Of a stretch of 64,000 nucleotides of DNA, positions 6,057 through 30,830 are shown piece after piece. Both the position numbers and the translations under genes were made by a program. Source of the DNA: Theionarchaea archaeon (lineage in GTDB: Archaea; Methanobacteriota_B; Thermococci; Methanofastidiosales; SZ-28-30); assembly GCA_018992685.1 (NCBI GenBank), contig JACVGT010000014.1, forward strand, positions 29,040 through 93,039, given 5' to 3'. The notes under the pieces were generated by a model. That model saw only the letters and a program-made list of their open reading frames with translations, ran no database searches and was not told the DNA's origin. Each line of letters begins with the position of its first letter. Position 1 is the first letter of the stretch.

Positions 6057-6069
6057 CTGAATGTTGACC

Positions 6070-6624
6070 TCACGTCGAGTTGTCCAAGTCATCGTCAAGA
6101 ACCAGAACTCTGTCTCTTGTTGCTCCAGGAGGAATTTCAAACTGAGGTGTCAGGGTTCTGATAACCTTTGCAGGGACTCCGGCAGCCAGTACATGGTCGG
6201 GAATGTCTCCCGTCACTACCGCTCCCGCTCCTATTACTGCGTATTCTCCCACAGTTACTCCGGGGAGGAGTGTGGCTCCTGTTCCAATCCAGCTGCCCTT
6301 TTTTATCAGCACTGGGTTCACAACTCTGGGGCCCAGATACTCGTACAGGGGCAACGTAGGGTTACTGTGGGCAAAAATAGTTGCTCTCGGGCTTATCGTT
6401 ACATCATCTTCGAGAATGACACTGTGAGGTTCCACTGGATCTATCAAAACATCATGGGCGATCTTGACCCTGTTCCCTACAACTACTCCTCGTAGACGAT
6501 GAAGGAAAGCATTGACTCCGACAAAGGGAGAAATCATGGCCAGCCTCAGCAGAAAATAAGTGTACAGCATGTGCTTGTGCTTCCAGGCGTATCGGGCCAG
6601 CCGTTTCCTATCTGTAGAGTTCAT
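6070..6624 (-). CDS. Hexapeptide-repeat (left-handed beta-helix) sugar O-acetyltransferase
   Basis: Tandem hexapeptide repeats (VVVGNRVKIAHDVLI ... IGTGATLLPGVTVGEYAVIGAGAVVTGDIP). Start chosen at ATG 6624; alternative 6654. Confidence 0.7.
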   Translation of the reverse strand: MNSTDRKRLARYAWKHKHMLYTYFLLRLAMISPFVGVNAFLHRLRGVVVGNRVKIAHDVLIDPVEPHSVILEDDVTISPRATIFAHSNPTLPLYEYLGPRVVNPVLIKKGSWIGTGATLLPGVTVGEYAVIGAGAVVTGDIPDHVLAAGVPAKVIRTLTPQFEIPPGATRDRVLVLDDDLDNST

Positions 6625-7363
6625 AGACCTGCTCCATAGTAATAAAATCAACATTCAGCTCTCTAAGAAATTTAAGATATCTTTTCACCTTTTTTATGAA
6701 CGCAGCCCCTGCATTCTTGGTGACGTAAAAAGGAACTGGGACCTCTGGAGGGACAAATGAAAACTCCCAAGGATGGAAGTTCACTACCAGATACCCATCG
6801 CGCTTCAGAGTGTACAGGGCCATTATCTTGGCCAGTGACAAGGGGCACATCCGCAAGACCATGCTGGTTAGGGGTACAATACCCACAGTTGATATTGGTA
6901 TCTCCATTAATGATTCCGAAAGCATATACACATTGAGGAATCTGTCCATTCTTGATGCGCTCCTTACGGGTATCTGGGAGCTGTCGTACACAAAATAGGG
7001 CTCCAAGTACTTGACCATCAACCTGCTGAACCCATAATATGGAGCTCGAAATCCTCTGGCCGAGAAGAGACGATTACAGTGGGATAGCTCTTCCTCCAAT
7101 GCGATAGGTGATAATGAACGCAAATCCAGGTGTGTATACCCATGAGATGCTATTTCATGGCCATTTTCACGCACGATGTCTAGAATGGTAGGAGTACTCT
7201 CCACATATCTACCCAGCATGAACAACGTCGAAGGTACGTCTTCTTCACAGAAAATATCAAGAAGGGCTCTCAGCCCATGATAATCATTCACCGAACAGGA
7301 TACCCCATACTTGGCAATGGCATCTGAAAACTTCTCAATATCTGCAGTCACACATACGTGCAT
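6608..7363 (-). CDS. Polysaccharide deacetylase (NodB homology domain, CE4)
   Basis: Motifs TADIE, FMLGRYVE, HGYTHLDL characteristic of the NodB/CE4 domain. Overlaps the downstream acetyltransferase by 17 nt, so the two are co-transcribed. Confidence 0.75.
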   Translation of the reverse strand: MHVCVTADIEKFSDAIAKYGVSCSVNDYHGLRALLDIFCEEDVPSTLFMLGRYVESTPTILDIVRENGHEIASHGYTHLDLRSLSPIALEEELSHCNRLFSARGFRAPYYGFSRLMVKYLEPYFVYDSSQIPVRSASRMDRFLNVYMLSESLMEIPISTVGIVPLTSMVLRMCPLSLAKIMALYTLKRDGYLVVNFHPWEFSFVPPEVPVPFYVTKNAGAAFIKKVKRYLKFLRELNVDFITMEQVYELYR

Positions 7364-10887: not shown

Positions 10888-13284
10888 CTACTTGCGCCTC
10901 ATCTTGAACCGCACATACATTATGATCAGCAAGAACACCACGAGAATGAGTACACCCGAGGAGACTCTCCTCACCCTCTCCTGTTCAACTTGATTTTGAA
11001 TCCGTGCACTGAGGGTCTCAAATTCTATAATAGTCGTTTTGGCTTTATCTTCAGCTTCCTGGTATTTCCCTTCAATAAAAAGGGCTCTGGCTTCTGCCAG
11101 CAATTCAAGGGCTTGATCTATCTCCTCTTCAAGTGCTGTGGTGTTAACATTCAGTTGTTGGGCCTCTTCCAGAGCCAGGGGGATTTTTGAGTAGCTTCTC
11201 TTGGCCTCAGCGATACTCTGCCTGGCTGTCTCCCTGTTCTGCATTTCTTTTTCTGCTCGTTCCTGTTCCAGCAAATAATAGGTTGAAATGACTGCAGCAT
11301 TATCCCCCATGTTGTAAATTTCTGTGAGCAGCTCGTCAGTGAGAGCCAGTCGGTAGGTATACGCAATATAGAATCCTCCCCACAAGGAATTGTCGAGCGA
11401 TGACTGAGGATACGCACCCACACTGGTGATCCCATTGTTATAAGCAACAATTAAGGAATTAATTAAGTTCTCCCGGGCTGGAGGTGCAGGAGATTCAACG
11501 TAAAAACTCAGGATGTACTTTGAGGGAGTAGGGAGGCTCTTTACTATGTATTCTACGCGAGGTGGGTTTTGAAGACCGATGTTGATCAGGACAATCCGGT
11601 CAACGATATCTTCCACCTCTGGGAGGTACAACCCGTACTCAGAAGAAGCAAGTTCCAAGTTGGCAGAAACTGGGACCTCCACCCACAATTCCTTGTTGGA
11701 ATCGCGTATAAGTTCCCTGAGGTCCCGCAGAAACTGGGAAAGCAGACTGGTCTTCCATTCTCTCACGGTTGGATCATAAATATTGATGCTGCCATCTGTC
11801 CTGGGCCAGTCTTCTACAGGGACACCTTTCTGAGCCATGTAATCAATATAGGATTGCAGGCAATCAATACAGAAACAGTCTTCCAGATAGTACAGTTGAG
11901 TAACAAGGATTGCTTCTGCATCATAATTGTTTGCTAGATACGTGACCATTTCAAAGAATTCTGTTTTATAAGGGTCCTGGATGAGTGCTGTGAGACATAT
12001 TCTCTTTCTCAGGACTCCCCACTCAAACGTTACAGAAGCTGAATCTTTATATCTGGTTGCAAATTCCTCGGACTGGGCATTGACCTGCAGGACACCGTAC
12101 AGATTGGCATTCCGTGCCTTGGAGATCATCTCATCAACATAATCTCGATCATATTTCTGTATGTAGGCACTCCACTTGTCGGGATAGGGCCAATACTTGA
12201 AGTATGTTGAGAACACGTGACCTGCCGGCAGAACAGCTGTGTTGACCTCGTAGCTTCTCCACTCTTCCATATTGTACTGATTGTTAAAGAACTCAATAAA
12301 GGTCAATCGAGTCATCCGAATGTCTTCAAAGGGAATTTGAGCCTTCTTTATGCGTTCGAAGTCCTTTCTCTGCCAGGCATCAGAATCAAAGATGAGCATA
12401 TCTGCATACGTACTCTCAGCCACCTGAGCTCTGGCATTGCTGACGTAGTCATCAGGAATGATGACGTACACTCCTGCTTTGGTCAACAACGTCAGCCTGT
12501 TGATGAGCGGAGTCGGGTTAGCCTCAGTCTGAACAGCCACAAAGGTAGCTACTCCCGGAGGCACATACTCTGCATCCTGATCTTGCAGTTCTTCAGGGAT
12601 GACTGTCACACCCACAGGCAGGTCTTGAGGCATAATGTCACGCAGAAAGTCAGAAAGGACTTCATTCCGGTAGGAGAGCCAGTCATACCAGAGGGGGGTA
12701 TTGCGTTCTTTTTCAAGCGATAGGTCAATGGAACCCATGTTATACCCGTATCGCTGCCCAAAATTGGCCTTTAATTCATCACTGGCAGCAAAATCATCAG
12801 GAAACCACAGATAATCGAAAAGTATCCCATCAATTGGATATGCTGTTACCTCATTCATCATGATTGTGTAGTACTGTCTCGATTTCAGAGGAGAGATCCA
12901 GTATTCTTTTGTGGCCATGTTCTGTTCCGCAAGCCACCTGTCATACAAGAGAGGAATCCACGCATACACCTTGATATTCTGATCATGTGCCTTCTTCAGA
13001 GTCTCATCAAGCACATCAAACTCGGACTTAACAAGGCTCCTGGGACTATTGTAGTACACCAGTCCTGAATCTGGTCCAGTGTCCTGCTTTATCATGAGAA
13101 AAATGTAGGAAACTCCATATTCTGCGCACAAATTCACAATAGAATCTATGTCTGCCTTTGTCTGTATAATATCATGGGGACGCACAAAGATCGCCAGAGG
13201 TAGATCAGTTGGTAATGATGCCGAAGGTGTGGGAATCATGGCAAGGCCCAATACAATGAGGAAGAGTACTGCAGCTCGATTCAT
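10888..13284 (-). CDS. Large secreted protein: signal peptide, TIM-barrel-like glycoside-hydrolase-like domain (GHL10/DUF187-like), long coiled-coil stalk, C-terminal TM anchor
   Basis: N-terminal signal peptide (MNRAAVLFLIVLGLAMIPTPSAS). Central region resembles the YngK/GHL10 family. C-terminal ~150 aa is heptad-rich (EKEMQNRETARQSIAEAKRS ... QVEQERVRR), followed by a hydrophobic anchor and a KMRRK tail. Confidence 0.35.
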   Translation of the reverse strand: MNRAAVLFLIVLGLAMIPTPSASLPTDLPLAIFVRPHDIIQTKADIDSIVNLCAEYGVSYIFLMIKQDTGPDSGLVYYNSPRSLVKSEFDVLDETLKKAHDQNIKVYAWIPLLYDRWLAEQNMATKEYWISPLKSRQYYTIMMNEVTAYPIDGILFDYLWFPDDFAASDELKANFGQRYGYNMGSIDLSLEKERNTPLWYDWLSYRNEVLSDFLRDIMPQDLPVGVTVIPEELQDQDAEYVPPGVATFVAVQTEANPTPLINRLTLLTKAGVYVIIPDDYVSNARAQVAESTYADMLIFDSDAWQRKDFERIKKAQIPFEDIRMTRLTFIEFFNNQYNMEEWRSYEVNTAVLPAGHVFSTYFKYWPYPDKWSAYIQKYDRDYVDEMISKARNANLYGVLQVNAQSEEFATRYKDSASVTFEWGVLRKRICLTALIQDPYKTEFFEMVTYLANNYDAEAILVTQLYYLEDCFCIDCLQSYIDYMAQKGVPVEDWPRTDGSINIYDPTVREWKTSLLSQFLRDLRELIRDSNKELWVEVPVSANLELASSEYGLYLPEVEDIVDRIVLINIGLQNPPRVEYIVKSLPTPSKYILSFYVESPAPPARENLINSLIVAYNNGITSVGAYPQSSLDNSLWGGFYIAYTYRLALTDELLTEIYNMGDNAAVISTYYLLEQERAEKEMQNRETARQSIAEAKRSYSKIPLALEEAQQLNVNTTALEEEIDQALELLAEARALFIEGKYQEAEDKAKTTIIEFETLSARIQNQVEQERVRRVSSGVLILVVFLLIIMYVRFKMRRK

Positions 13285-16942: not shown

Positions 16943-17911
16943 TCATTCCACAAGACTCTGTTCTTCCTCACCCTCAATGTAGTGAAGGACGCCAATGGCC
17001 TGACTAAATTTGTCTATCATGCCGCTGGTTTTCATGAATTGAAGCGTTGCTGAAAGATCAGTGAAGGTGAGATCTGACTTGATGCTCAGCCACACCAGCA
17101 ACCCTTCCTCGGTATGGGTACAGACAGTACTGGTAGGAAGGTTTGAGAGGAGTGCAATTACTGCGTCAGTGTATCCAGTTCTGAGGAGGAACACAAAGTG
17201 AGTGTAGTTGAGATAGCCATCAGGGTAGAACCTCATGAGGACAGTCGTATGGTTACAGACAGTTTCTAGCCACTGGTAAAACTTGTCAGATGAGATCAAA
17301 TGTTTTCTCAACGCAGGAGTGACTTTCTTTCTGAAATCATATTCATATTCATAAAACAGTTTCCATTCTTCTTCATCCCAGGAGGGAGGTTCATGGACAG
17401 GCAACCCCACCTTTTCAAGACCATTGGGCTCAAACTCGTGTGCCTGACTCTTCATTCGCTTGAAAGCTGGAATCCAATCAGTGAGAGGGACCCGGGGAGT
17501 AGTGATGTCTCCTCGTACTCCCTGGAACAATAAGTATTCAAATCCTTCAATGTGAGAGGGGTCATATTTCCCGTCTGAAATGTACATGATGTTCCAGTCT
17601 CCTAGGAACAAGCTACAATAGTCGATCTGAGGAATCTCTCTTAGCTGTTCAAATGCATTGTTTGGATCATCAAACTTGACGAGATGAAAGTATTTATTTA
17701 GTCCGGGATAGTATTCAAGTCTCAATTCTGGTCCAAACAGTATCTGAGAATCATACATATGATCTAAATAGCTGGAAACTGTATTTCGTGCCATTTTAAC
17801 ATTCTTAGAAATCTCATGAACGTGTACTCTGGGATTTACATATATTTGATTATATATAGCATGGTATCTTCTCAATTTCTCCTTTCTTGTAAGTTTGCTC
17901 ATATAACTCAT
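16943..17911 (-). CDS. Orphan hypothetical protein with an N-terminal helix-turn-helix (putative DNA-binding protein); rest has no recognisable family
   Basis: 322 aa. Residues ~25-60 (VHVHEISKNVKMARNTVSSYLDHM) look like a classical HTH. Isolated by long AT-rich intergenic regions on both sides. Confidence 0.4.
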   Translation of the reverse strand: MSYMSKLTRKEKLRRYHAIYNQIYVNPRVHVHEISKNVKMARNTVSSYLDHMYDSQILFGPELRLEYYPGLNKYFHLVKFDDPNNAFEQLREIPQIDYCSLFLGDWNIMYISDGKYDPSHIEGFEYLLFQGVRGDITTPRVPLTDWIPAFKRMKSQAHEFEPNGLEKVGLPVHEPPSWDEEEWKLFYEYEYDFRKKVTPALRKHLISSDKFYQWLETVCNHTTVLMRFYPDGYLNYTHFVFLLRTGYTDAVIALLSNLPTSTVCTHTEEGLLVWLSIKSDLTFTDLSATLQFMKTSGMIDKFSQAIGVLHYIEGEEEQSLVE

Positions 17912-18029: not shown

Positions 18030-18056
18030 GAGACCGGTTGTTCTACAACCGGTCTC
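18030..18056. promoter_or_regulatory. Perfect palindrome GAGACCGGTTG-ttcta-CAACCGGTCTC (11-bp arms) in the 5' region of the HTH gene
   Basis: Exact inverted repeat about 120 bp upstream of the HTH gene start (minus strand) and about 320 bp upstream of hdrC. Confidence 0.6.
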
Positions 18057-18376: not shown

Positions 18377-18880
18377 ATGAAAAAGAAGGAAATTATCAAC
18401 ATGGACGAACTGGATCCCCAATTCAAGTATGAGATCGCTTCCCAACCAGGAGGAGAGCACATACTGAAATGTGTGCAGTGTGCTACTTGTTCCTCTGGTT
18501 GTCCTGTGGCTTCTGTGAGTGACAGATTCAACCCACGGAAAATTATCCGAATGGCAGTCCTGGGACTGAAGGATACAGTCCTGAGAGAGGATTTTGTCTG
18601 GTACTGTGCTGCCTGTTACACATGCTCTGAACGCTGTCCCCAGGACGTGAGAATTCCTGACCTCATGGCGGCTGTCAGGAACATCGCAGTCAAAGAGGGA
18701 TGCATTCACCCTGCCTACAAAGAACAGGGGCGATTAATAGGGGAACTGGGACGATTGTATGAAGTGACTGAATTTGAGAATGAGAAAAGGGAGAAGCTTG
18801 GCCTTCCCAAAGTGAGAGAGAAGAATGAAGAAATAGCTGAAATTTACAGCTGCACTGGTGTAGGAAAGGTGGTGCTGTGA
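18377..18880 (+). CDS. hdrC: Heterodisulfide reductase subunit C
   Basis: Two Cx2Cx2Cx3CP ferredoxin motifs (CVQCATCSSGCP; CAACYTCSERCP) in a ~165-aa protein, directly followed by hdrB. Confidence 0.85.
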   Translation: MKKKEIINMDELDPQFKYEIASQPGGEHILKCVQCATCSSGCPVASVSDRFNPRKIIRMAVLGLKDTVLREDFVWYCAACYTCSERCPQDVRIPDLMAAVRNIAVKEGCIHPAYKEQGRLIGELGRLYEVTEFENEKREKLGLPKVREKNEEIAEIYSCTGVGKVVL

Positions 18881-19752
18881 AGTATGCATTGTTTTTAGGT
18901 TGTACTGTTCCAGTGAGAACCATGGCGTACGAAATTTCCACCAGAAATGTCATGAAAAAACTGGGGATCTCTCTTGCAGACTTGGAAGATTTCGGCTGCT
19001 GCGGATTTCCTTTAGAATCTATTGATCATACTACCTATTTGTCAGTGGCTGCGAGAAATCTGGCCGTTGCAGAAGCTGCCAACCTGCCTGTGATGACCAT
19101 GTGCAGTGCCTGCAATGGGTCTCTCCTCAAAGCCAACCTGGCCATGCAGGACAAGAATACACGAGATGAAATAAATGCCAACCTAAAGCCCATTAATCGG
19201 CAGTACAAGGGGACTACGGTTGTAAAGCATGCGGCCAGGGTACTATATGAGACCATGGACACCATAAAGGAGATGGCACATCCCCTGAACCTGAAGGTTG
19301 CTGCTCACTATGGATGCCATTACACTAAACCCTCCGAAATATATGCGGATTTCGAAGACCCCGAAGTCCCCTACAGTCTGGAGGAGCTCATCTCTGCAGT
19401 CGGAGCAACACCTATTCCGTACGAGAATAAAAAACAGTGCTGTGGAGGGTCTGTCATGGGAATTGATGAGAGTGTTTCTCTGGAGATGGTACGAGAGAAA
19501 CTATCTCACATCAAGAAAGCAGGAGCAGATGCCATGGTCCTGGTATGCCCGTTCTGTGATGTCATGTATGACATAAATCAGAAACGGATTGAAAATCAGG
19601 CTGGAGAACAATTCGGTATTCCTGTGCTGTTCCTGCCCCAGCTGATAGGACTGGCCCTTGGACTGACACCTGACGAATTAGGGCTGAAAATGAACAGAGT
19701 ATCAGTGCGCAATCTGCTGAAGACCCTGGGTGACGGCAATGAGCAAAAGTGA
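18877..19752 (+). CDS. hdrB: Heterodisulfide reductase subunit B (two CCG domains)
   Basis: Cysteine-rich CCG motifs (DFGCCGFPL; KKQCCGGSVMG) and overall HdrB length. 4-nt overlap with hdrC. Confidence 0.9.
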   Translation: MKYALFLGCTVPVRTMAYEISTRNVMKKLGISLADLEDFGCCGFPLESIDHTTYLSVAARNLAVAEAANLPVMTMCSACNGSLLKANLAMQDKNTRDEINANLKPINRQYKGTTVVKHAARVLYETMDTIKEMAHPLNLKVAAHYGCHYTKPSEIYADFEDPEVPYSLEELISAVGATPIPYENKKQCCGGSVMGIDESVSLEMVREKLSHIKKAGADAMVLVCPFCDVMYDINQKRIENQAGEQFGIPVLFLPQLIGLALGLTPDELGLKMNRVSVRNLLKTLGDGNEQK

Positions 19753-21721
19753 ACCTCGAATCGGAGTGTATGTGTGCCATTGCGGCTTGAACATTGGTGC
19801 AGTTGTGGATGTTGCTGCTGTGGCTCAATATGCCCAGACGCTTCCTGGCGTGGTGGTTTCAAGAGAATCAACCTACACATGCAGCGACAATGGTCAGAGA
19901 TCTATCCAGGAAGACATCGAGAACCACAACCTGAGTCGGGTGGTGGTGGCTTCCTGCAGTCCGCGCATGCATGGCGATACCTTCATGAAGACCTGTGAGA
20001 CTGCAGGGCTGAACCCGTACCTTTTTGAGATGGTCAATATCAGAGAGCAATGTTCATGGGTGCACACTGATAAAGAACAGGCCACAGAGAAGGCCAAAGA
20101 CTTGGTGAGAATGGCAGTTGCCAAAGTACGATTACTGGAACCCTTAGAAAAGCAGAAATCTGCCGTCAACAAGGCTGCACTGGTGATTGGAGGAGGAGTG
20201 GCCGGTATTTTCTCTGCTTTGTACCTGGCAAATGCAGGAATTAAAACATACGTTGTTGAGAAAAAGCCGTCTATTGGAGGACACATGGCTCAACTGGACA
20301 AGACATTCCCCACCCTGGACTGTAGTCTGTGCATTCTTTCTCCAAGAATGGCAGATATAGGAAAACATGAAAATATCGAACTCATTACCTATGCAGATAT
20401 TGAGAATATTTCAGGATACGCGGGGAATTTTCAGGTTACGGTGAAAAGCAACCCACGCTATGTCATAAAGGAGAACTGCCGACTGTGCGGTGTGTGTGCG
20501 GAAAAATGTCCTATCTCGCTGCCCGATGAGTTCAACATGGGATTGAAGAAAAGGAAAGCAGTGTACATACCTTTCCCGCAGGCAGTTCCGAATTACTACC
20601 TCATCGATGCTGGTCACTGTTTACACATTACCAAGGGAGGATGCATGCTGTGCCAGAAAAACTGTCCCAATGATGCCATTGATTTTGAAGAGACAGAAGC
20701 AGTGAGAGAGCTCAATGTGGGCGCCATCATTGTGGCCACGGGATTTGAGCTGTATGATGCTACCCAGAAGAAGGAGTACGGATACGGGAGGTATCCCAAT
20801 GTCATCACCAACATGGACTTCGAAAGGTGGGTGAGTGCAGATGGCCCTACCCACGGCAAGGTTGTGAGGCCTTCAGACGGAGCCCCCCCTCAGAGGATTG
20901 GGTTCATCCAGTGTGTCGGATCCCGAGACGAGAAGGAGGGAGCAGTCTACTGCTCTCGTATCTGCTGCATGGCAACGGTAAAGCAGGCCACGATGCTCAG
21001 GGAGAAGTACCCCTCAGCTGAAATATATGTGTACTACACTGACATGCGAACTCCTGGCAAAGGGTTTGAAGAATTTTACCAGAGAGGACGTGAGCATGGG
21101 ATTGTATTCATCAGAGGAAAGCCAGGGGAAATTGAAGAAGATGACAATCACAATCTCCTTATCGTGTCAGAGGACACCGATTCCGGGCTCATCCTGCGCA
21201 ACACCTTGGACCTTGTGGTGTTGGCATGTGGACTTCGGCCACCTGAGGCGTTGGAAGAACTTGCACAGAAGTTGCATTTATCGCGAAGCCCTGACGGATT
21301 CATTATGGAGGCGCATCCCAAATTGCGTCCTGCAGAAACAAGTATCTCTGGAGTATTCCTGACTGGATGTGTTCAATTCCCCAAAGATATTCCAGATACG
21401 GTGGCACAATCAGGAGGAGCCGCCGCTATGGCCGCGGCCCTGTTGACGAAAGATGAGATCGAACTTGAGCCAGTAAGGGCAGCGGTGGACGAAGAACTGT
21501 GTATCGGGTGTGGATTGTGCGAGGAAAACTGCGACTATGGGGCCATTGAGGTAAAGAAAACAGAAGAAGGAATGAAGGCCCAGGTCATTGAAGTAGCCTG
21601 CCAGGGATGCGGTGTCTGTGCAGCCAGCTGTCCTCAGAAAGCAGTGACAGTCCGTCACTTCACAGATGGTCAGCTGCTGGCCCAGGTCACTGCTGCTCTA
21701 GAACCTGAGGTGATCGTGTGA
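19739..21721 (+). CDS. hdrA: Heterodisulfide reductase subunit A (canonical domain order)
   Basis: N-terminal Cys cluster domain (IGVYVCHCGLNIG ... ASCSPRMHG), FAD motif LVIGGGVAGIFSAL, inserted ferredoxin (CRLCGVCAEKCP / CMLCQKNCP), GPKDIPDTVAQ region, C-terminal 2x[4Fe-4S] ferredoxin (CIGCGLCEENC / CQGCGVCAASCP). Confidence 0.9.
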   Translation: MSKSEPRIGVYVCHCGLNIGAVVDVAAVAQYAQTLPGVVVSRESTYTCSDNGQRSIQEDIENHNLSRVVVASCSPRMHGDTFMKTCETAGLNPYLFEMVNIREQCSWVHTDKEQATEKAKDLVRMAVAKVRLLEPLEKQKSAVNKAALVIGGGVAGIFSALYLANAGIKTYVVEKKPSIGGHMAQLDKTFPTLDCSLCILSPRMADIGKHENIELITYADIENISGYAGNFQVTVKSNPRYVIKENCRLCGVCAEKCPISLPDEFNMGLKKRKAVYIPFPQAVPNYYLIDAGHCLHITKGGCMLCQKNCPNDAIDFEETEAVRELNVGAIIVATGFELYDATQKKEYGYGRYPNVITNMDFERWVSADGPTHGKVVRPSDGAPPQRIGFIQCVGSRDEKEGAVYCSRICCMATVKQATMLREKYPSAEIYVYYTDMRTPGKGFEEFYQRGREHGIVFIRGKPGEIEEDDNHNLLIVSEDTDSGLILRNTLDLVVLACGLRPPEALEELAQKLHLSRSPDGFIMEAHPKLRPAETSISGVFLTGCVQFPKDIPDTVAQSGGAAAMAAALLTKDEIELEPVRAAVDEELCIGCGLCEENCDYGAIEVKKTEEGMKAQVIEVACQGCGVCAASCPQKAVTVRHFTDGQLLAQVTAALEPEVIV

Positions 21722-22458
21722 CATTTTCTCCTAGGATTGTAGGGTTCATGTGTAACTGGTGTTCGTATGCAGGAGCTGATCTGGCTGGAATTTCGAGGAT
21801 AAAATATGCTCCCAATCTGAGGATTATCAGAGTGCTGTGTTCCGGGCGAGTTGACCCTTACGTAGTTCTGACCGCATTCCAAAAGGGTGCAGACGGCGTT
21901 CTGGTTGCAGGGTGCCACCCTGGAGACTGCCACTACATATCAGGGAACTACCAGGCAGAAAAGAAAATGAAAGCGACATGGAAGATATTGAGCAAAGCAG
22001 GGATTGATCAAGAAAGACTGGGACTGGAATGGATTTCTGCAGCAGAAGGTCAGCGATTTGCTGACGTTGTCAACTCGTTTACTCAACTGATTACTGAGTT
22101 GGGACCGCTTCAGGCTGATCCGCAGAAGATTGCCTCGGCCAAGGAAGAGACTGCAGATTTCAGAATTAGGTGGCTGGTGGGAAGAGAAAAAGACTTGCTG
22201 GAAGAGGGAAATGTGTTTGGCGAACCTGTAGAAGAAGCAGTGTTTGAGACCCTTCTGGATGATGTTGTTTCTGCCCAATACATCAGGAATTCTATTCTCA
22301 CCGTGCTCAAGGAACAGTCTATGTCAGCCAAAGAACTGGCAGAAACTCTTGAAATTCCTTCTCACGTGGTTGTGGAGCATTTGATTCACCTGCGGAGAGG
22401 GCAGAAGGTGCACATGGTTGAAGGTCATCCCATTCGGTACGAGGTGAGCGCATGGTAG
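21718..22458 (+). CDS. mvhD: MvhD-like [2Fe-2S] electron-transfer protein fused to a C-terminal winged-helix-like domain
   Basis: Residues 1-135 are MvhD (VGFMCNWCSYAGADLAG ... VAGCHPGDCHYISGN). An extra ~110 aa tail contains an HTH-like stretch SMSAKELAETLEIPSHVVVEHLIHLRRGQKV. GTG start overlaps the hdrA stop (GTGA). Confidence 0.8.
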   Translation: MTFSPRIVGFMCNWCSYAGADLAGISRIKYAPNLRIIRVLCSGRVDPYVVLTAFQKGADGVLVAGCHPGDCHYISGNYQAEKKMKATWKILSKAGIDQERLGLEWISAAEGQRFADVVNSFTQLITELGPLQADPQKIASAKEETADFRIRWLVGREKDLLEEGNVFGEPVEEAVFETLLDDVVSAQYIRNSILTVLKEQSMSAKELAETLEIPSHVVVEHLIHLRRGQKVHMVEGHPIRYEVSAW

Positions 22459-25421
22459 GTTCCATAATGGTTGTAGGAGGAGGAATTGCAGGAATGCAGG
22501 CCTCCCTGGATCTGGCAGATTCTGGATTTCGAGTATACCTGGTGGATAAAGCACCCACTATTGGTGGAGTGATGGCTCAGCTGGACAAAACCTTCCCCAC
22601 ACTGGACTGCTCCATGTGTATCATGGCTCCCAAGCTCGTGGCCACCGGGAGGCACCACAATATCCATCTGCTTACCAATGCAGTGATCACCAATGTGGAG
22701 GGAACCCCAGGCAACTTCACCGTAACGGTGACAATGAAGCCCCGTTACGTAAACGCGGAGAAATGCACAGGATGCGGACTGTGTGCCCAGTACTGCCCTG
22801 TAGAAGCAGTAAATGAATATGATGAACGACTGACGTTGCGCAGAGGTATCTACGTGGACTATCCTCAGGCAGTCCCGTTGGTATATGCGATAGACAGAGA
22901 GAAGTGCATTGGATGCGGATTGTGTGAGAATATTTGCCAGGCTGAAGCCATTGAATATCATCAGACTCCTGAAGAAGAACAGGTGAATGTAGGTGCCATT
23001 ATTCTGGCGGCAGGATTTGACGAATTTGAACCTGATACCAAGAAGGAATATGGGTACGGCAGGTTCAAGAATGTGGTGACTGCCACTGAATTCGAGCGCA
23101 TCCTCAGTGCTTCAGGTCCCTTTGCAGGACACGTGGTGAGGCCTTCTGATGGTGAAGTCCCGGGGAGAATAGCATTCTTGCAGTGCGTGGGGTCCAGAGA
23201 TGAAAACAGCAACAAGTATTGCTCTGCCGTGTGCTGCATGTATGCCACAAAGGAAGCTATTATTGCCAAAGAACACAACCCCGACCTTGAGGCAACAATC
23301 TTTTTCATGGACATGCGTACCTACGGGAAAGGGTTTGAACAGTTCTACAAGAGAGCCCAGTCTGAATACGGTCTCAGATACACGAGAAGCCGCGTCCCCT
23401 GTATTGAAGCAGACCCCGAAACTCAAAACCTCCTTCTTACCTATGAAACAGAAGATGGTACCATAACTAAAGAAGAATTTGACATGGTGGTCCTCTCAGT
23501 GGGGTTGGAGCCGCCAAAATCCAATCAAGAGCTGAGCAGCATTTTCGGTGTTCCTCTGAATGAATATGGGTTCCTAGACTGGAAAATATTTGAACCCCTC
23601 AAGGCAAAGGACGGCATATATGCATGCGGAGCCTTCTCTGGACCAAAAGACATTCCTGATACTGTGGCGCAGGCATCAGGAGCAGCAGCTATGGCATCAG
23701 GCGTAGTCTCCGGAGAACGGGGCACTCTCGTGGAAGAAAAGGTCTATCCTGAGGAGCTGGACGTTGCGGAACAGCCGCCCCGAATTGGTGTTTTCGTGTG
23801 CTGGTGCGGTATCAATATAGGTGGCATTGTCAATGTGCCCGAGGTGATGGAGTATGCCTCCACCCTCCCCAATGTGGTGTTCGTCGACCAGAATCTGTAT
23901 ACATGTTCACAGGATACGCAGGAGAAGATCAAACAGGCAGTGGAAGAGCACAGCCTGAACCGTGTGGTTGTTGCGTCCTGTACACCGCGAACACACGAAC
24001 CGCTGTTCCAGAGCACTATTCGGGAAGCTGGGCTGAACCCGTATCTCTTTGAGATGACAAACATTAGAGACCAATGTTCCTGGGTTCACATGCACACTCC
24101 AGAAGAAGCTACAGAAAAGGCAAAGGACCTGGTGAGAATGGCGGTAGCCAAATCCAATCTACTGGAGCCATTGAAGAGTTCGTCAGTTGAGGTCACTCAG
24201 TCTGGACTGGTCATTGGAGGCGGTATTGCGGGAATGACAGCAGCTCTGGGCCTGGCTCAACAGGGATTCACTGTCCACCTGGTAGAAAAGGAGGATCATC
24301 TGGGAGGGCTGCTGCGTGACATACGCTACACGGTGAGCGGGGAAGACCCCCAGGAGTATTTGACAGGTCTGGAACAGAGTCTCAGAGATCATCCCAATGT
24401 CACCATCCACACACAAGCAGTTGTGGAGAAAGTTGAGGGATATGTGGGGAACTTCACCACCACACTGTCCTCAGGAGAGGAAATCAACCATGGAATCTGC
24501 GTTATAGCTGTAGGAGGGCAAGAGCACAAGCCCACCAGTTATCTGTATGGCGAGGACAAGAGAGTCATCACCCAGCTGGAATTTGAGGATATGCTCTCCA
24601 AAGGAGTGAAGGCCAAGACTGTGGTGATGATAAATTGTGTGGAATCCAGAGATGACACCAAGGAATACTGCTCCAGGGTATGCTGTTCAGAAGCTGTGAA
24701 AAATGCTTTACAGCTGAGAGAACAGAATCCAGACGCAACCATATATATTCTGTACAGGGACATGAGAACCTACGCGTTCAGAGAGCAGTACTATGACAAG
24801 GCACGGGAAGCAGGTGTCGTATTCATGAGGTATGATCCAGAGACAAAACCTCGACTGGAAAAGAAAGACAAATCGTTGGTGTTATACGCGCACGATTCTG
24901 CTCTGGATCTTGACTTTGAACTGCATCCCGACCTGGTTGTACTGTCTACAGGAGTATCTCCCTATGACAACTCAGCGCTCTCTCAGATGCTCAAAGTCCC
25001 TCTTGACAGAGACGGGTTCTTCTTGGAAGCCCACATGAAACTGCGCCCGGTGGATTTTGCCACAGACGGGGTATTCATGGCAGGGCTGGCACATTCTCCC
25101 AAGTTCATTGATGAGACGATTTCTCAGGCTTTTGGAACAGTTGCCCGGGCTTGTACCATCGTCTCAAAAGAGAGAATAGAGACAGAGCCAATCATTGCAG
25201 AAGTTGATGAAGAACTCTGCTGCGGGTGCCAGGTATGTATACCAATGTGCCCGTATAATGCACGTGAATTAGATGAGGAGGAGAAGATAGTCAAGGTCAA
25301 CGAAGTGCTCTGCAAAGGGTGCGGTTCGTGTGTTGCTGCATGTCCCTCCAAGGCAGCTCAGCAGAGACACTTCCGTGACAGCCAATTAAGTTCCATGATT
25401 GAGGCCTTTGTGAGGCGATAA
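22452..25421 (+). CDS. Large (989 aa) HdrA-like flavoprotein with permuted and duplicated domains: FAD domain with inserted ferredoxin, HdrA N-domain-like Cys cluster, second FAD domain, C-terminal ferredoxin
   Basis: Two Rossmann FAD motifs (MVVGGGIAGMQASL at residue ~6; LVIGGGIAGMTAAL at ~580). HdrA N-domain-like segment in the middle (IGVFVCWCGINIGG ... ASCTPRTHE ... NIRDQCSWVH). Ferredoxin CxxCxxCxxxC motifs after FAD domain 1 and at the C-terminus. Confidence 0.8.
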   Translation: MVGSIMVVGGGIAGMQASLDLADSGFRVYLVDKAPTIGGVMAQLDKTFPTLDCSMCIMAPKLVATGRHHNIHLLTNAVITNVEGTPGNFTVTVTMKPRYVNAEKCTGCGLCAQYCPVEAVNEYDERLTLRRGIYVDYPQAVPLVYAIDREKCIGCGLCENICQAEAIEYHQTPEEEQVNVGAIILAAGFDEFEPDTKKEYGYGRFKNVVTATEFERILSASGPFAGHVVRPSDGEVPGRIAFLQCVGSRDENSNKYCSAVCCMYATKEAIIAKEHNPDLEATIFFMDMRTYGKGFEQFYKRAQSEYGLRYTRSRVPCIEADPETQNLLLTYETEDGTITKEEFDMVVLSVGLEPPKSNQELSSIFGVPLNEYGFLDWKIFEPLKAKDGIYACGAFSGPKDIPDTVAQASGAAAMASGVVSGERGTLVEEKVYPEELDVAEQPPRIGVFVCWCGINIGGIVNVPEVMEYASTLPNVVFVDQNLYTCSQDTQEKIKQAVEEHSLNRVVVASCTPRTHEPLFQSTIREAGLNPYLFEMTNIRDQCSWVHMHTPEEATEKAKDLVRMAVAKSNLLEPLKSSSVEVTQSGLVIGGGIAGMTAALGLAQQGFTVHLVEKEDHLGGLLRDIRYTVSGEDPQEYLTGLEQSLRDHPNVTIHTQAVVEKVEGYVGNFTTTLSSGEEINHGICVIAVGGQEHKPTSYLYGEDKRVITQLEFEDMLSKGVKAKTVVMINCVESRDDTKEYCSRVCCSEAVKNALQLREQNPDATIYILYRDMRTYAFREQYYDKAREAGVVFMRYDPETKPRLEKKDKSLVLYAHDSALDLDFELHPDLVVLSTGVSPYDNSALSQMLKVPLDRDGFFLEAHMKLRPVDFATDGVFMAGLAHSPKFIDETISQAFGTVARACTIVSKERIETEPIIAEVDEELCCGCQVCIPMCPYNARELDEEEKIVKVNEVLCKGCGSCVAACPSKAAQQRHFRDSQLSSMIEAFVRR

Positions 25422-25423
25422 CC

Positions 25424-25834
25424 ATGTATGAACCAAAAATTATCGGATTCTTGTGTAACTGGTGTTCATATGCAGCTGCAGATCTGGCGGGGACTTCCAG
25501 GATACAGTATCCATCCAACATGAGAGCGATCCGGGTTATGTGTTCCAGCAGGGTGGACCCTGAACATGTGCTGCGGGCATTTGTCAACGGCGCAGACGGC
25601 GTTCTGATTGCAGGATGTCACCCCGGTGACTGCCACTACATCTCAGGTAACTACAAAACAGAAAGGAAATATGTGCTGCTGCGCGAGATGTTGGAGCAGT
25701 TCGGCATTGACCCACGCAGGCTGAGGCTGGAGTGGTGTTCTTCTGCTGAAGGTGGAAAGTTCGCGCAGGTAGTGACGGAGATGACTGAAGAACTGAAAAC
25801 TCTTGGACCAATAGAACTGGGAGCTGGTGATTGA
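25424..25834 (+). CDS. mvhD: MvhD, [2Fe-2S] subunit of F420-non-reducing hydrogenase (stand-alone copy)
   Basis: 136 aa: IIGFLCNWCSYAAADLAG ... IAGCHPGDCHYISGNY. Confidence 0.9.
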   Translation: MYEPKIIGFLCNWCSYAAADLAGTSRIQYPSNMRAIRVMCSSRVDPEHVLRAFVNGADGVLIAGCHPGDCHYISGNYKTERKYVLLREMLEQFGIDPRRLRLEWCSSAEGGKFAQVVTEMTEELKTLGPIELGAGD

Positions 25835-26809
25835 ATGGATAAGCTAAAGTTTGCTTTCTATTGGGCCGCCTCTTGCGGCGGCTGTGAAATCGCTGTTCTG
25901 GATATTGATGAGAAGATACTGAATGTCGTTGAAAAAGCAGACATTGTCTTCTGGCCAGTGGCACTTGACACCAAGTACAAAGATGTAGAGGCATTCCAAG
26001 ACAAGTACATTGATGTGTGTTTCTTCAATGGTGCTATTAGAACCAGCGAACATGAGGAAATGGCCCATCTGCTCCGTGCGAAATCCAAGACATTGGTTGC
26101 ATTTGGAGCCTGTGCCTGTTTTGGAGGAATACCAGGGCTGGCCAATGTTTCTGACAGAGACGAGATCTTTGATCTGGTATACAGAGAGTTACCGTCCGTA
26201 TCCAACCCGGACAAGACGACACCTCAGCTCACCTACACAGCTCCCGAGGGGGAGTTGACTCTCCCACAATTCTTCGATACAGTCAAGGCTCTACACCAGG
26301 TCTGTGACGTAGATTACTTTTTGCCTGGGTGTCCTCCCACCCCGGAGATGATCGAACAGGCGGTTACTGCGATTTTTGAGGGAACTCTACCTTCAAAAGG
26401 AAGTACCTTAGCACCTGAAAAAGCGTTGTGTGAAGAGTGCCCCTTGGAAATCCAAGAGAAAAAAATCCCTTTTATCAAGCGCCCCTACCAGGTCACACCT
26501 GATGGAAAAAGGTGCCTGTTGGAACAGGGTGTCATTTGTATGGGCATCAATACCAGAGCAGGGTGTGGAGCCAGGTGCATCAAAGCCAACATGCCGTGCA
26601 GAGGATGCATGGGTCCGACTCCTGAGGTGGCTGATCAGGGAGCAAAACTGGTATCTGCCATTGCTTCCATTCTGGGTGTGGAAGGAGAAGAACGCATGAC
26701 GGAAAAGGAAATTGAAGCCCTGATAGCCCAGATAAAGGATCCACTCGGAACATTCTACCGGTACACCTTACCAATTTCTCTGTTAAGAAGAAAGGTGATA
26801 AAAAAATGA
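25835..26809 (+). CDS. mvhG: [NiFe]-hydrogenase small subunit MvhG
   Basis: N-terminal proximal-cluster motif YWAASCGGCEIAVLD, GACACFGG, and the CPPTP region typical of group 3c small subunits. Confidence 0.85.
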   Translation: MDKLKFAFYWAASCGGCEIAVLDIDEKILNVVEKADIVFWPVALDTKYKDVEAFQDKYIDVCFFNGAIRTSEHEEMAHLLRAKSKTLVAFGACACFGGIPGLANVSDRDEIFDLVYRELPSVSNPDKTTPQLTYTAPEGELTLPQFFDTVKALHQVCDVDYFLPGCPPTPEMIEQAVTAIFEGTLPSKGSTLAPEKALCEECPLEIQEKKIPFIKRPYQVTPDGKRCLLEQGVICMGINTRAGCGARCIKANMPCRGCMGPTPEVADQGAKLVSAIASILGVEGEERMTEKEIEALIAQIKDPLGTFYRYTLPISLLRRKVIKK

Positions 26810-28260
26810 ATCGAGTTACCATTAATCCTATCACTCGCCTGGAAGGGCATGGTAAAATTGAGATATTCCTTGATAGCAAGGGAAATGTGGAGAATGCCTA
26901 TCTGCAGATTCCTGAATTGCGCGGATTTGAACGGTTCTGCCAAGGAAGGCCTGGGGAGGAACTGCCCAGAATTACTCCTCGAATCTGTGGTGTGTGTCCC
27001 ACTGCTCATCACATGGCATCTGCAAAAGCACTGGATGCAGCCTTTAATGTGGAGCCGACACCCACTGCTAAGAAATTGAGAGAACTCATGTATGCAGGAT
27101 ACTATGTATATGATCACACTCTTCACTTCTACTATCTGGGTGGTCCTGACTTCATTGTGGGGCCTCAAGCCCCGGCTGCAGAACGAAATATTCTTGGCGT
27201 TATCAACAAGGTGGGACTTGACATTGCAAAAGAAGTGATCAAGCACAGAAGCTACGGACAAAAAGTCATTGAAATCCTGGGAGGAAAAGCCACTCATCCT
27301 GTTTCAGCACTCCCGGGAGGGATATCTAAAGGGCTGACAGAAGAGGAAAGGGCCAGCATTGAAGAAATGGCCAGGTCTTCTGTCAAGTTTGCAGCGTTTT
27401 CTCTAGAAACCTTTGACAACATTGTCCTCAAGAACAAGGAATATGTTGATTTGATTACTTCAGATGCCTATACCATGAGAACATATTACATGGGGCTTGT
27501 TGACGAGAACAACAAGGTCAACTTCTACGATGGAAAGATAAGAGTTGTGGATCCCACTGGGAAGGAGTACATCAAGTTTGATGCTTCAGACTACCTCACA
27601 CACATTGCAGAACATGTGGAACCCTGGTCGTACATCAAATTCCCTTACCTGAAAGGGGTAGGATGGAAAGGGTTTGTAGATGGCGTAGACTCTGGAGTGT
27701 ACCGGGTTGCCCCATTGGCAAGACTCAATGCTGCACAGGGAATGGCCACACCATTGGCCCAGGAAGCATATGAGAAGATGATGGAAACGCTGGGTTCCCC
27801 TGTCCACCATACGCTTGCCACACACTGGGCCCGCCTCATTGAGCTTCAATATGCAGCAGAACGCCTGCTGGAGTTGGCCCAGGATGAAGACATCACTTCC
27901 AAAGACATACGAGCTGAGCCGGGAGAACCCGGTGAAGGAGTGGGGGTTGTCGAAGCAGCTCGTGGAACCTTATTCCATCATTACAAGCTGGACAAAGACG
28001 GGCTCGCCGAAAGTGTCAACCTCATAGTTGCCACCGTAAACAATGGACCCGCCATAAACATGTCAGTAAGAGATGCAGCAAAAGGACTCATAAAAGAGGG
28101 TAAGGTATCTGATGGGTTGCTGAACATGGTAGAAATGGCCTTCAGGTCATATGACCCCTGCTTTGGCTGTGCTACCCATTTCCTCCCTGGAGAAATGCCA
28201 CTACAGGTGAGAATTCACAGAATCGACGGAACAGTTCAAACTCTTGAACGGAATCTCTAA
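26806..28260 (+). CDS. mvhA: [NiFe]-hydrogenase large subunit MvhA
   Basis: N-terminal RICGVCPTAHH (RxCGxCxxxH) and C-terminal DPCFGCATH (DPCxxCxxH) nickel-ligand motifs. About 26 residues follow the C-terminal His. Confidence 0.9.
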   Translation: MNRVTINPITRLEGHGKIEIFLDSKGNVENAYLQIPELRGFERFCQGRPGEELPRITPRICGVCPTAHHMASAKALDAAFNVEPTPTAKKLRELMYAGYYVYDHTLHFYYLGGPDFIVGPQAPAAERNILGVINKVGLDIAKEVIKHRSYGQKVIEILGGKATHPVSALPGGISKGLTEEERASIEEMARSSVKFAAFSLETFDNIVLKNKEYVDLITSDAYTMRTYYMGLVDENNKVNFYDGKIRVVDPTGKEYIKFDASDYLTHIAEHVEPWSYIKFPYLKGVGWKGFVDGVDSGVYRVAPLARLNAAQGMATPLAQEAYEKMMETLGSPVHHTLATHWARLIELQYAAERLLELAQDEDITSKDIRAEPGEPGEGVGVVEAARGTLFHHYKLDKDGLAESVNLIVATVNNGPAINMSVRDAAKGLIKEGKVSDGLLNMVEMAFRSYDPCFGCATHFLPGEMPLQVRIHRIDGTVQTLERNL

Positions 28261-28374: not shown

Positions 28375-28776
28375 ATGGTACAAAAACACTGGACAGCGAT
28401 GTTTCGATGGCATGAATTCAGACCAGATGAGAAGGGAATTGAGAAGGTGTTGAGCCCTCTGGAATCTGAGATCATGCAGATTATGTGGGATGAGAAGATA
28501 TCTGTGGCTCGGGATATCTATGAGATCATGAAAAAAAAGGAAAAGAAGACCCGCAGATCTACAATCAGCATCATGATGAACCGGCTGCGCGAACGGGGGC
28601 TTCTGGAGAGACAGCCGGAGACAGGAAAAGGGGGAGAACGATATGTCTACACCGTCAGAGTAACACGGGAAGAGTTTTCCCGTGCAGTGGTGGAAAAGGT
28701 AATGAGCAGTCTCACAGAAGCGTTCCAGGATGCCACGGTGAGGTATGTGAGAAACCATCTTTCTGATAAGATTTAA
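28375..28776 (+). CDS. BlaI/MecI/CopY-family winged-helix transcriptional repressor
   Basis: LSPLESEIMQIMWDE ... STISIMMNRLRERGLLERQ ... YVYTV matches the Penicillinase_R wHTH pattern. No BlaR1-type sensor or copper ATPase adjacent. Confidence 0.6.
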   Translation: MVQKHWTAMFRWHEFRPDEKGIEKVLSPLESEIMQIMWDEKISVARDIYEIMKKKEKKTRRSTISIMMNRLRERGLLERQPETGKGGERYVYTVRVTREEFSRAVVEKVMSSLTEAFQDATVRYVRNHLSDKI

Positions 28777-29794: not shown

Positions 29795-30625
29795 CTACGG
29801 TTTCTTGCCTTTTCCTTTGCTCTTACCCTTGTTCTTGTCTTTTCCCTTTCCTTTGCCGTTGTTGTTGCTGTCGCTTTCACTGTCCTCATCGTCTTTGTTG
29901 TTGCCATTTCCCTGATTCCCAAGAGAATTCTTCTCTCTGTTCTGTTCTCTGTTCTGTTCCTGGTTTTCATCCTCGCCTTCGTTCTGTTCTTCGTTCTGTT
30001 CTTCGTTTTCCTCTCCGTCCTCTCCGTTGTCTCTCTCGTACTTGCTCAGAGCATTCCCGGAGGTGTGGAGTGCAGCATTTGAAAGACCCTTTGCAGCACC
30101 AAGTTTTCCCTCTGCTGCCTTTTCAGCTGCCTTCTGCAGCAATTTAACAGCTACATTGTATAGGGTCTCCACGGCCTGAGAAACTTCTCCCTCGCCTTCT
30201 TCGTCTTCTTCATCGTCGCCTATTTCATCGTCTCCGTCATCTTCGCCTTCTCCGTCATCTTCGCCTTCTCCGTCATCTTCGCCTTCTCCGTCATCTTCGC
30301 CTTCTCCGTCATCTTCGCCTTCTCCGTCATCTTCGCCTTCTCCGTCATCTTCGCCTTCTCCGTCATCGCCGTTAAGCAGCTCTTCAAGTTCTTTTATGTT
30401 ATTGGCAGCATCAATGAACTGCTGTACCAGCGCTTCTGACATACCTTCGTTGTCGGCATCGTCAGGGAAGGGATCAAATTGATCAGGAATTCCATCGCCG
30501 TCAGAGTCAGCCCACGGATCAGTCTCTTCATCTTCTTCCGGAGGATCCTCTGAGTCTTCTGCAAGGATTGGATAGAGGTTTCCGATAAGCATCATGAGCA
30601 TCAAGATCGCAATCAGCTTTTTCAT
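29795..30625 (-). CDS. Secreted low-complexity poly-acidic protein with (GEGEDD)n repeats, thrombospondin-type-3-like Asp motif and a Lys/Gly-rich C-terminal tail
   Basis: Signal peptide MKKLIAILMLMMLIGNLYPILA. DSDGDGIPDQFDPFPDD (DxDxDG-like) motif. Seven-plus tandem GEGEDD units, then E/N/Q-rich segment and KGKGKDKNKGKSKGKGKKP end. Confidence 0.5.
   Translation of the reverse strand: MKKLIAILMLMMLIGNLYPILAEDSEDPPEEDEETDPWADSDGDGIPDQFDPFPDDADNEGMSEALVQQFIDAANNIKELEELLNGDDGEGEDDGEGEDDGEGEDDGEGEDDGEGEDDGEGEDDGEGEDDGDDEIGDDEEDEEGEGEVSQAVETLYNVAVKLLQKAAEKAAEGKLGAAKGLSNAALHTSGNALSKYERDNGEDGEENEEQNEEQNEGEDENQEQNREQNREKNSLGNQGNGNNKDDEDSESDSNNNGKGKGKDKNKGKSKGKGKKP
30231..30374. repeat. Perfect 18-bp tandem repeat (tctccgtcatcttcgcct) x7 plus one diverged unit, encoding the GEGEDD repeats
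   Basis: Seven identical consecutive 18-mers read directly from the sequence. Confidence 0.95.
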
Positions 30626-30830
30626 GTAGTTCACCTAATCCTCTTAGGCACGATCCTTTATAAGCTTTTCGCCGAGTAGTCAGAATATTTTCAATCTTTT
30701 TAAGAAATTTCTTAAGTCTTTTGCGAAATATACAATACATGACAGTACTGTGTGTTATTGCGAAGGGAAACCCCCTGGAAAGATGCAGTCCTGCGCAATG
30801 TTTATAACTGACAATGGACTTTTGTTTTCC

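Follow-up and report, generated by a model that had tools for sequence, protein, structure and literature searches.

We analysed a stretch of 64,000 nucleotides from a Theionarchaea archaeon (assembly GCA_018992685.1, contig JACVGT010000014.1, positions 29,040 to 93,039 of the forward strand), hereafter called the window, whose own numbering is used below. The gene at 21718..22458 (+ strand), here named mvhD-long, encodes a 246-residue protein with a GTG start and a TAG stop according to the open reading frame (ORF) list and the translation, and in this protein an MvhD [2Fe-2S] domain is followed by a C-terminal winged-helix tail. It is a member of a widespread and essentially undescribed MvhD subfamily, which is related to BamF of the class II benzoyl-CoA reductase and differs from it in its partner genes and in a linker motif. 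We propose, with a probability of about 0.62, that mvhD-long is an extended MvhD adaptor and that its tail is a protein-protein connector holding a second redox module, as the winged helix of BamF does. The domain architecture, the fold, the conservation of the fusion, the homology between this tail and those of BamF-type proteins, the conserved arrangement of neighbouring genes and the fusion proteins are documented below. From them we infer that the tail most likely contacts protein and not DNA, and what its partner would be.

The N-terminal half was compared with known MvhD proteins. The Pfam family FlpD/MvhD (PF02662) matched residues 7-129 (21736..22104, + strand) from end to end, with an expectation value (E) of 1.5e-53, 180.5 bits for a cutoff of 22.3 and profile positions 1-123 of 123 covered. 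Solved MvhD chains (5ODC chain D, 7BKB chain F and 8RVU chain F) matched the N-terminal 130 residues at E values from 1e-43 to 1e-49, chain 5odc_D being aligned to residues 3-132 (E 8.9e-49). A Foldseek search with the predicted model of mvhD-long returned the MvhD chains 8rvu_F (E 5e-15, template modelling score 0.91 on the target), 5odh_D and 7bkb_F. Finally, C12, C15, C41, C66 and C71 were invariant across the 49-sequence family alignment, in the pattern CxxC ... C ... GCHxGDCH. A previous inspection of the letters and ORFs, which we call the sequence-only reading, had taken the first 135 residues as a complete MvhD, and these results bear it out. It had also stated that the MvhD encoded at 25424..25834 (+ strand) lacks the tail. 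This second protein, mvhD-short, is indeed a canonical MvhD of 136 residues (Pfam FlpD, E 8e-57) that is 61% identical to residues 3-132 of mvhD-long over 130 residues, and it has no tail. The canonical MvhD of the MvhAGD-HdrABC complex is thus similar to mvhD-long in the N-terminal 130 residues, in the five conserved Cys and in having its gene beside hdrA, but the solved chains are 129-141 residues long and end where the tail begins.

The tail spans residues ~133-246. Structure prediction gave a predicted local distance difference test score (pLDDT) of 88.1 and a predicted template modelling score (pTM) of 0.83 for full-length mvhD-long, and a pLDDT of 91.2 for the tail alone. The predicted order is three short helices (135-162), a long helix (173-199), a strand, helices at 204-211 and 215-227, and strands at 231-234 and 240-243. 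The first part, a helical linker of residues 135-185 (22120..22272, + strand), contains the three short helices and the first part of the long helix and matched no known fold. The second part, residues 186-243 (22273..22446, + strand), is a winged-helix domain formed by the end of the long helix, the strand, the two helices 204-211 and 215-227 and the wing strands 231-234 and 240-243. The winged-helix fold of the tail is thus confidently predicted, and the full-length pTM suggests that the tail packs in a defined manner on the MvhD core. The sequence-only reading had described a tail of ~110 residues with a helix-turn-helix like the ArsR, MarR and TrmB wings, to be checked by structure prediction. 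The fold stands, but the likeness to these families does not extend to their models, for which all scores were sub-threshold: PF0610-like_N 31.1 bits for a cutoff of 33, HTH_20 20.1 for 27, TrmB 16.2 for 25.6 and HTH_5 15.9 for 22 in Pfam, and, far under the cutoff, HTH_metalloreg 20.1 for 55 and SdpR 24.6 for 100 in NCBIfam. The best of them, the PF0610-like winged helix (PF21476), covered 38 residues only and was not followed by a Cys-rich ribbon like the rubredoxin-like zinc ribbon of that family; a precomputed PF21476 match is present on some mvhD-long homologues.

Conservation of the tail peaks in a linker motif and not in the winged helix, which is as expected of a fixed protein interface. 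The most conserved stretch, residues 147-169 (22156..22224, + strand; column counts in 49 sequences), reads DFRIRWLVGREKDLLEEGNVFGE in the window protein. Its family consensus is D-F-R-L-R-x-L-V-G-R/K-E-R-x-L-x-E-E-G-N-V-Y-G-E, with R151 and N165 kept in 49/49 sequences, E157 in 48/49, G168 in 47/49, and R149 and E162 in 46/49. By eye, most tail-bearing sequences that were listed show the motif, in places in a degenerate form (GDVYGR, NVYHE), whereas BamF-type proteins and one locus of our collection, L022, lack it. Within the winged helix, the conserved positions are R190, I193, S203, K205, E206, H221, L225, R226, R227 and Y241.

Two functions had been offered for the tail in the sequence-only reading, one of which was to couple the redox state of the Hdr/Mvh complex to transcription. 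The winged helix would then bind DNA under the control of the [2Fe-2S] cluster or of the Hdr/Mvh redox state, and mvhD-long would feed back on hdr/mvh expression. We found no support for such a redox-responsive transcription factor and several results against it, and we consider it very unlikely. The fold of the tail is shared with the ArsR, MarR, IclR and Rrf2 regulators and there are weak sequence matches to ArsR/SdpR-type models, but every regulator model stayed under its curated cutoff. Homologues are annotated at the source as 'hydrogenase iron-sulfur subunit', occasionally with '/predicted transcriptional regulator' added. As to charge, helix 3 ends in conserved basic residues (R226, R227 and K/R at position 228) and the family mean net charge of the winged helix is +2.0, while that of the linker is -4.1; however, the winged helix of the window protein has a net charge of about -1 (own count from the translation), and the exposed helix 3 positions 216, 217, 220 and 224 vary from one family member to another and often hold acidic residues. 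The translation has no Cys in residues 133-246 and the tail shows no recognisable sensor site, and the extra dimerisation helices of ArsR/MarR proteins were not evident, no dedicated test having been made for them. In addition, some relatives have the tail inside oxidoreductase polypeptides of 800-1700 residues, the homologous winged helix of BamF is reported to contact protein, mvhD-long is a translationally coupled structural gene in mid-operon, and a separate BlaI-type winged-helix regulator gene lies just 3' of mvhA.

ArsR/SmtB and MarR regulators (CzrA 1R1U, NolR 4OMY, HlyU) differ from the tail, which scores below their thresholds, lacks ligand residues for a metal or for redox sensing and belongs to a protein with an electron-transfer domain. 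The ArsR sensor site, made of Cys/His ligands in alpha3N or alpha5, was not found in the tail, and since the chain stops behind the wing it has nothing equivalent to alpha5. The lack of tail Cys together with the sub-threshold scores led us to reject an ArsR-type metal or redox sensor. Zalpha domains (ADAR1, PKZ, ZBP1) were also matched. Asn173 and Tyr177 of helix 3, their Z-DNA contact residues, align with Val and Ile in the window tail, so this match reflects the minimal fold only and not a function. A precedent for a winged helix that serves as a protein-binding module in anaerobic redox metabolism is DsrD of sulfate reducers, a small winged-helix protein belonging to a redox enzyme system. 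Its resemblance to Zalpha first raised the suspicion that it binds DNA, but its action was later reported to depend on binding to the enzyme DsrAB. DsrD differs from the tail in being a free-standing protein of another enzyme system.

The closest known relative of the long MvhDs is BamF. In a 2026 cryogenic electron microscopy preprint on the class II benzoyl-CoA reductase (BamBCDEFGHI) of Geobacter metallireducens, BamF is an MvhD-homologous adaptor more than 100 residues longer than other MvhDs, its winged helix-turn-helix interfaces with BamI, it links the BamGHI and BamED modules, and it is reported to contain a selenocysteine, Sec19 (bioRxiv 10.64898/2026.04.10.717634). Like BamF, mvhD-long combines the MvhD [2Fe-2S] domain with an extension of more than 100 residues carrying a winged helix-turn-helix, and is encoded beside a fused double HdrA of ~1000 residues (BamE in the reductase). 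One of the loci that we fetched, L066, has in order (Pfam labels) an HdrD-like protein, a 1018-residue double HdrA, a 254-residue long MvhD, NuoE-like, NuoF-like and NuoG-N-terminal-like proteins, a protein of the aldehyde:ferredoxin oxidoreductase (AOR) family and a ferredoxin, which by these labels is an arrangement of the bamDEFGHIBC type. Its 254-residue MvhD aligns over the full length with the long MvhDs of the window type (referred to below as cassette-type) and is 41% identical to the window protein over residues 5-250. The tail-only hidden Markov model (HMM) matched the tail of the L066 protein at E 4.4e-10. When cassette-type and BamF-type tails were aligned with hhalign, the latter being from BamF-like proteins defined by synteny and not from Geobacter metallireducens BamF itself, a probability of 96.8% was obtained (E 2.2e-10). 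The 85 aligned columns begin with the LVGREK/LVEREK segment and include the wing. On these profile comparisons, the window tail is homologous to BamF-type tails. The other function offered earlier, a winged helix-turn-helix serving as a protein-protein docking domain, gains support from this homology and from the reported BamF-BamI interface.

The homology was seen only by HMM and profile-profile comparison, as BLASTP of the tail against the L066 protein gave no match. Together with the lack of the GNVYGE motif in BamF-type tails, this indicates two diverged subfamilies. When the BamF-like protein of L066 was used as the query, no named Geobacter BamF was among the best 120 matches, so the link to the BamF that was studied rests on synteny. 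The 989-residue HdrA of the window and the BamE-like protein of L066 are 47.8% identical over 1006 residues; tblastn of BamG, H, I, B and C from L066 gave no match in the window. Without BamGHI and BamBC in the window, mvhD-long is not a benzoyl-CoA reductase subunit. The two systems therefore differ in the genes for BamGHI (NuoEFG/HydBC-like) and BamBC (tungsten AOR), which the window lacks. They differ also in the position of the long MvhD, which in the window lies between a single-unit HdrA and a double HdrA in a cluster ending with a second MvhD and a [NiFe] hydrogenase. Cassette-type tails carry RxRWLVG...GNVYGE whereas BamF-type tails do not, and the window protein has no in-frame stop, in contrast to BamF with its reported Sec19. 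In the literature that we searched on MvhD with a winged helix or a C-terminal extension, on HdrL and on Theionarchaea, the tail was described nowhere but in the benzoyl-CoA reductase preprint. A fused-dimer HdrA has been described (PMC12054007, PMC9012536), and 'type II' or fused double HdrA with co-located MvhD genes as well, but not the tail (PMC12054007, PMC9012536, PMC2702500).

We then looked at the conservation of the fusion. More than 100 homologues of 245-260 residues cover 91-100% of mvhD-long. The nearest are 90-91% identical and are labelled Methanofastidiosia or Theionarchaea archaeon, one of them, at 90%, being of equal length. In a scan of one genome per species, long MvhDs were found in Dehalococcoidia and other Chloroflexi, Bathyarchaeia, Methanophagales (ANME-1), Promethearchaeota and Sifarchaeum (Asgard archaea), and also in Thermoplasmata, Methanomassiliicoccus, Desulfobacterales, Syntrophorhabdus, Syntrophobacteraceae, Betaproteobacteria, Cloacimonadota and Rhodospirillaceae. 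A word-indexed search with the tail only, in which few candidates share exact words, gave 3 proteins and was replaced by an HMM scan with the tail-only profile, which, against 1.84 billion representative proteins, detected 476 clusters at E <= 1e-3 and 216 at E <= 1e-10.

That a frameshift or an assembly error has fused two separate genes, one for a short MvhD and one for a small winged-helix protein, has practically no chance of being correct. Split forms do exist, such as a 154-residue MvhD followed by an overlapping 130-residue tail ORF in locus L010, and so do stand-alone tail proteins. However, mvhD-long is a single reading frame with no internal stop, its more than 100 colinear homologues are spread over many phyla and were assembled independently, and the linker is conserved across the domain junction. 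The sequence-only reading had itself named a frameshift as a way in which the tail could turn out to be an independent ORF; no frameshift was found, and an artefact of this kind is ruled out by the colinear homologues, the invariant tail residues R151 and N165 and the uninterrupted frame. As to L010, a Thermoplasmata metagenome-assembled genome, the MvhD in question is the second one of its cassette (11803-12656 with the tail-only ORF, which lies at 12264-12656 and matches the tail HMM at E 2e-22) and stands before mvhG. The pair is either a split long MvhD or a frameshift, and this locus thus has two copies of the tail. Another particularity was seen in deltaproteobacterial long MvhDs, where an in-frame stop replaces the invariant Cys66 of GCHxGDCH (8190-8192 in L024, and the same alignment position in L039). 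In L024 this stop codon is TGA (G-TGA-H-F-G-D-C-H). The stop probably encodes selenocysteine, and it explains the N-terminally truncated ORF calls in the Desulfobacterales loci L023-L029 and L039.

Within the window, mvhD-long is gene 4 of 8 on the same strand, and neighbours in this operon overlap or are spaced by 0-2 nucleotides. Directly 5' lies a single-unit hdrA (19730..21721, + strand; 663 residues; Pfam FAD and Fer4 domains; NCBIfam HdrA2 model positions 1-642, 942 bits), and directly 3' a gene for a large fused double HdrA, 'type II' and BamE-like (22452..25421, + strand; 989 residues; in Pfam, two FAD/TrxR units and two ferredoxin regions). Start and stop codons overlap at both junctions, as read directly from the sequence. 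Upstream (21707..21721, + strand), a GAGGTGA Shine-Dalgarno sequence at 21707-21713 precedes the GTG start at 21718, which overlaps the hdrA TGA stop at 21719-21721 (GTGA). Downstream (22441..22458, + strand), GAGGTGA at 22441-22447 lies inside the last mvhD-long codons and the ATG of the large hdrA at 22452 overlaps the TAG stop at 22456-22458. Thus, mvhD-long is translationally coupled to both neighbours, which suggests production as a stoichiometric subunit.

To describe the neighbourhood elsewhere, the ORFs of 81 fetched loci were labelled by BLASTP with the window proteins, tails were marked with the tail HMM, and the count was restricted to the 31 tail-bearing genes that were followed by 1.8 kb of sequence or more. 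The next gene was HdrA-type in 26 of the 31, usually of ~1000 residues, followed by a short MvhD and then by hdrCB and/or mvhGA. This is the survey of extended MvhDs beside large HdrA genes that had been suggested from the sequence. In most of those loci the gene directly 5' of the long MvhD was HdrA-type too, either the 1000-residue fused form, a split pair of 430 and 557 residues, or, like that of the window, a single unit. The same gene order is found, according to precomputed Pfam labels, in locus L001, which comes from an independent 1.1-Mb contig. The window order fits a cassette HdrA / MvhD-long / ~1000-residue double HdrA / MvhD-short. Tail-less MvhDs, unlike the long form, were mostly encoded directly beside mvhGA, in hdrCBA-mvhD-mvhGA clusters. 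The five exceptions were L066 (BamG next), L010 (the split tail ORF and then mvhG), L020 and L055 (an HdrD-like gene 5', and the operon ends), and L022.

These loci bear on another explanation, in which the tail packs on its own MvhD core or on the HdrA already bound, and stabilises or shields the [2Fe-2S] site or guides a conformational swing, no second module being recruited. It is less specific than the connector, and we regard it as unlikely. The monomer pTM of 0.83 would suit a compact two-domain unit, and in L020, L022 and L055 the long MvhD is the last gene and has no downstream partner, L020 and L055 even keeping a version of the conserved motif without a downstream flavoprotein; the correlation between the linker motif and a downstream HdrA gene is thus not clean. 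Contrarily, a second HdrA-type gene comes directly next in the 26 loci counted above, in the fusions what follows the tail is an additional flavoprotein module or BamG, the winged helix of BamF contacts BamI, a subunit of a different module, and stand-alone tails (L010 12264-12656, P0125 and P0122) fit a separable binding module.

The fusions were obtained by Pfam scans of the longer proteins retrieved with the tail profile. P0123 (810 residues) reads HdrA-MvhD-tail, P0197 (1737 residues) reads HdrA-MvhD-tail-Fer4 and then a GltD-like NAD(P)H module, P0263 (1227 residues) and P0228 read MvhD-tail-GltD-like, and in P0277 (415 residues) a BamF-like protein is joined to BamG. Being placed in the interior of redox polypeptides, between MvhD and the next module, the tail looks like a connector, unlike a DNA-binding domain. 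Stand-alone tail proteins (P0125, P0122, P0137 and the L010 ORF) indicate that it is a separable module. The arrangement of P0123 recalls HdrA2 of Methanosarcina, a 'type Ia' HdrA with a C-terminal MvhD fusion (PMC5296606, PMC12054007). The best NCBIfam match of both window MvhDs is the MvhD part of the HdrA2 model. HdrA2 shows that MvhD works as a fixed appendage of the HdrA encoded 5'. It has no winged-helix tail, as the MvhD domain takes up the C-terminal end of its model (positions 647-775 of 777).

Other architectures were also seen. P0248 (756 residues) and P0244 (516 residues) contain the tail module at residues ~385-500 (FRLKIALEKG...GENVYGE and a winged helix) without any MvhD domain. 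Their uncharacterised N-terminal region of ~390 residues has, by eye, another winged-helix-like segment, and P0248 also has a C-terminal 4Fe-4S ferredoxin domain. L001 encodes at 5382-6974 a 530-residue protein with MvhD, Fer4 and CCG domains (precomputed Pfam), a fusion of the MvhD-HdrC/B-like kind, and ORFs of 657-658 residues in L010 and L048 had MvhD as their best BLAST label. These fusions indicate that the MvhD domain recombines freely with Hdr modules.

For the connector proposed here, the most probable assembly would be as follows. The MvhD domain would bind an HdrA-type flavoprotein and relay single electrons via its [2Fe-2S] cluster, as is established for MvhD. This HdrA would most likely be the 663-residue one encoded 5', by analogy with HdrA2 and with the HdrA-MvhD-tail fusion. 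The tail would dock a second module, as BamF, the gene order and the fusions suggest. In the window, HdrCB-HdrA(663)-MvhD-long would then most likely be joined via the tail to the 989-residue double HdrA, which would in turn carry MvhD-short and the MvhAG hydrogenase, resulting in a single assembly that is linked to a hydrogenase and bifurcates electrons at more than one flavin site.

Several points weigh against this proposal. The partner of the tail is read solely from gene order and fusions, and the evidence for docking by BamF comes from one preprint. The tails to which ours was compared are those of the synteny-defined BamF-like proteins, BLASTP did not connect the two groups, and the absence of RxRWLVG...GNVYGE from BamF-type tails means that the interface may differ. 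In L020, L022 and L055 the operon ends with the long MvhD and no flavoprotein gene comes after it, and the basic end of helix 3 and the positive family mean charge of the winged helix would be compatible with some binding of nucleic acids.

A broader proposal, which we make tentatively and hold to be doubtful, is that long MvhDs are general couplers whose tail joins two HdrA-type bifurcation units into a hydrogenase-driven tandem-bifurcation supercomplex, encoded by the cassette HdrA / MvhD-long / fused double HdrA / MvhD-short / (HdrCB) / MvhGA. If true, it would extend the principle of coupled bifurcation modules, recently proposed for benzoyl-CoA reductase, to a widespread uncharacterised enzyme, and such an enzyme would exist in Theionarchaea, Bathyarchaeia, Asgard archaea, ANME-1, Thermoplasmata, Dehalococcoidia and Desulfobacterales. 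Anaerobes depend centrally on flavin-based electron bifurcation of the HdrA type to conserve energy. Double HdrA proteins (type II) abound in archaea and bacteria that are uncultured, and according to a 2025 survey no biochemical study has addressed them (PMC12054007). A distinct tail-bearing MvhD subfamily accompanying the double HdrA therefore gives a testable handle on the assembly of multi-module complexes. It also corrects a tempting mis-annotation, some database entries naming these proteins transcriptional regulators.

The remaining genes of the operon, all on the + strand, are hdrC (18377..18880, 167 residues; Pfam Fer4_8 and Fer4_17) and hdrB (18877..19752, 291 residues; Pfam CCG in two stretches) on the 5' side, and, after mvhD-short, mvhG for the [NiFe]-hydrogenase small subunit (25835..26809, 324 residues; Pfam Oxidored_q6) and mvhA for the large subunit (26806..28260, 484 residues; Pfam NiFeSe_Hases). 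Directly after mvhA and on the same strand, 28375-28776 encodes a 133-residue winged-helix protein of the BlaI/Penicillinase_R family, which is a more conventional candidate regulator adjoining the operon. On the other side of the operon, a 322-residue ORF (16943-17911, minus strand) is divergent from hdrC; it had no Pfam match at E <= 0.001, and its N-terminus appeared helix-turn-helix-like by eye. The intergenic region between this ORF and hdrC contains, at 18030-18056, a perfect palindrome of 12 + 12 nucleotides with a 3-nucleotide spacer, GAGACCGGTTGT TCT ACAACCGGTCTC, followed by T-rich runs. It occurs only once in the window, against a chance expectation of 0.01, and could be an operator or a hairpin; nothing ties it to the MvhD tail. 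Finally, a 279-residue ORF at 29795-30634 (minus strand) encodes a very acidic low-complexity protein with tandem GEGEDD repeats, a hydrophobic N-terminal segment and a lysine-rich C-terminus.

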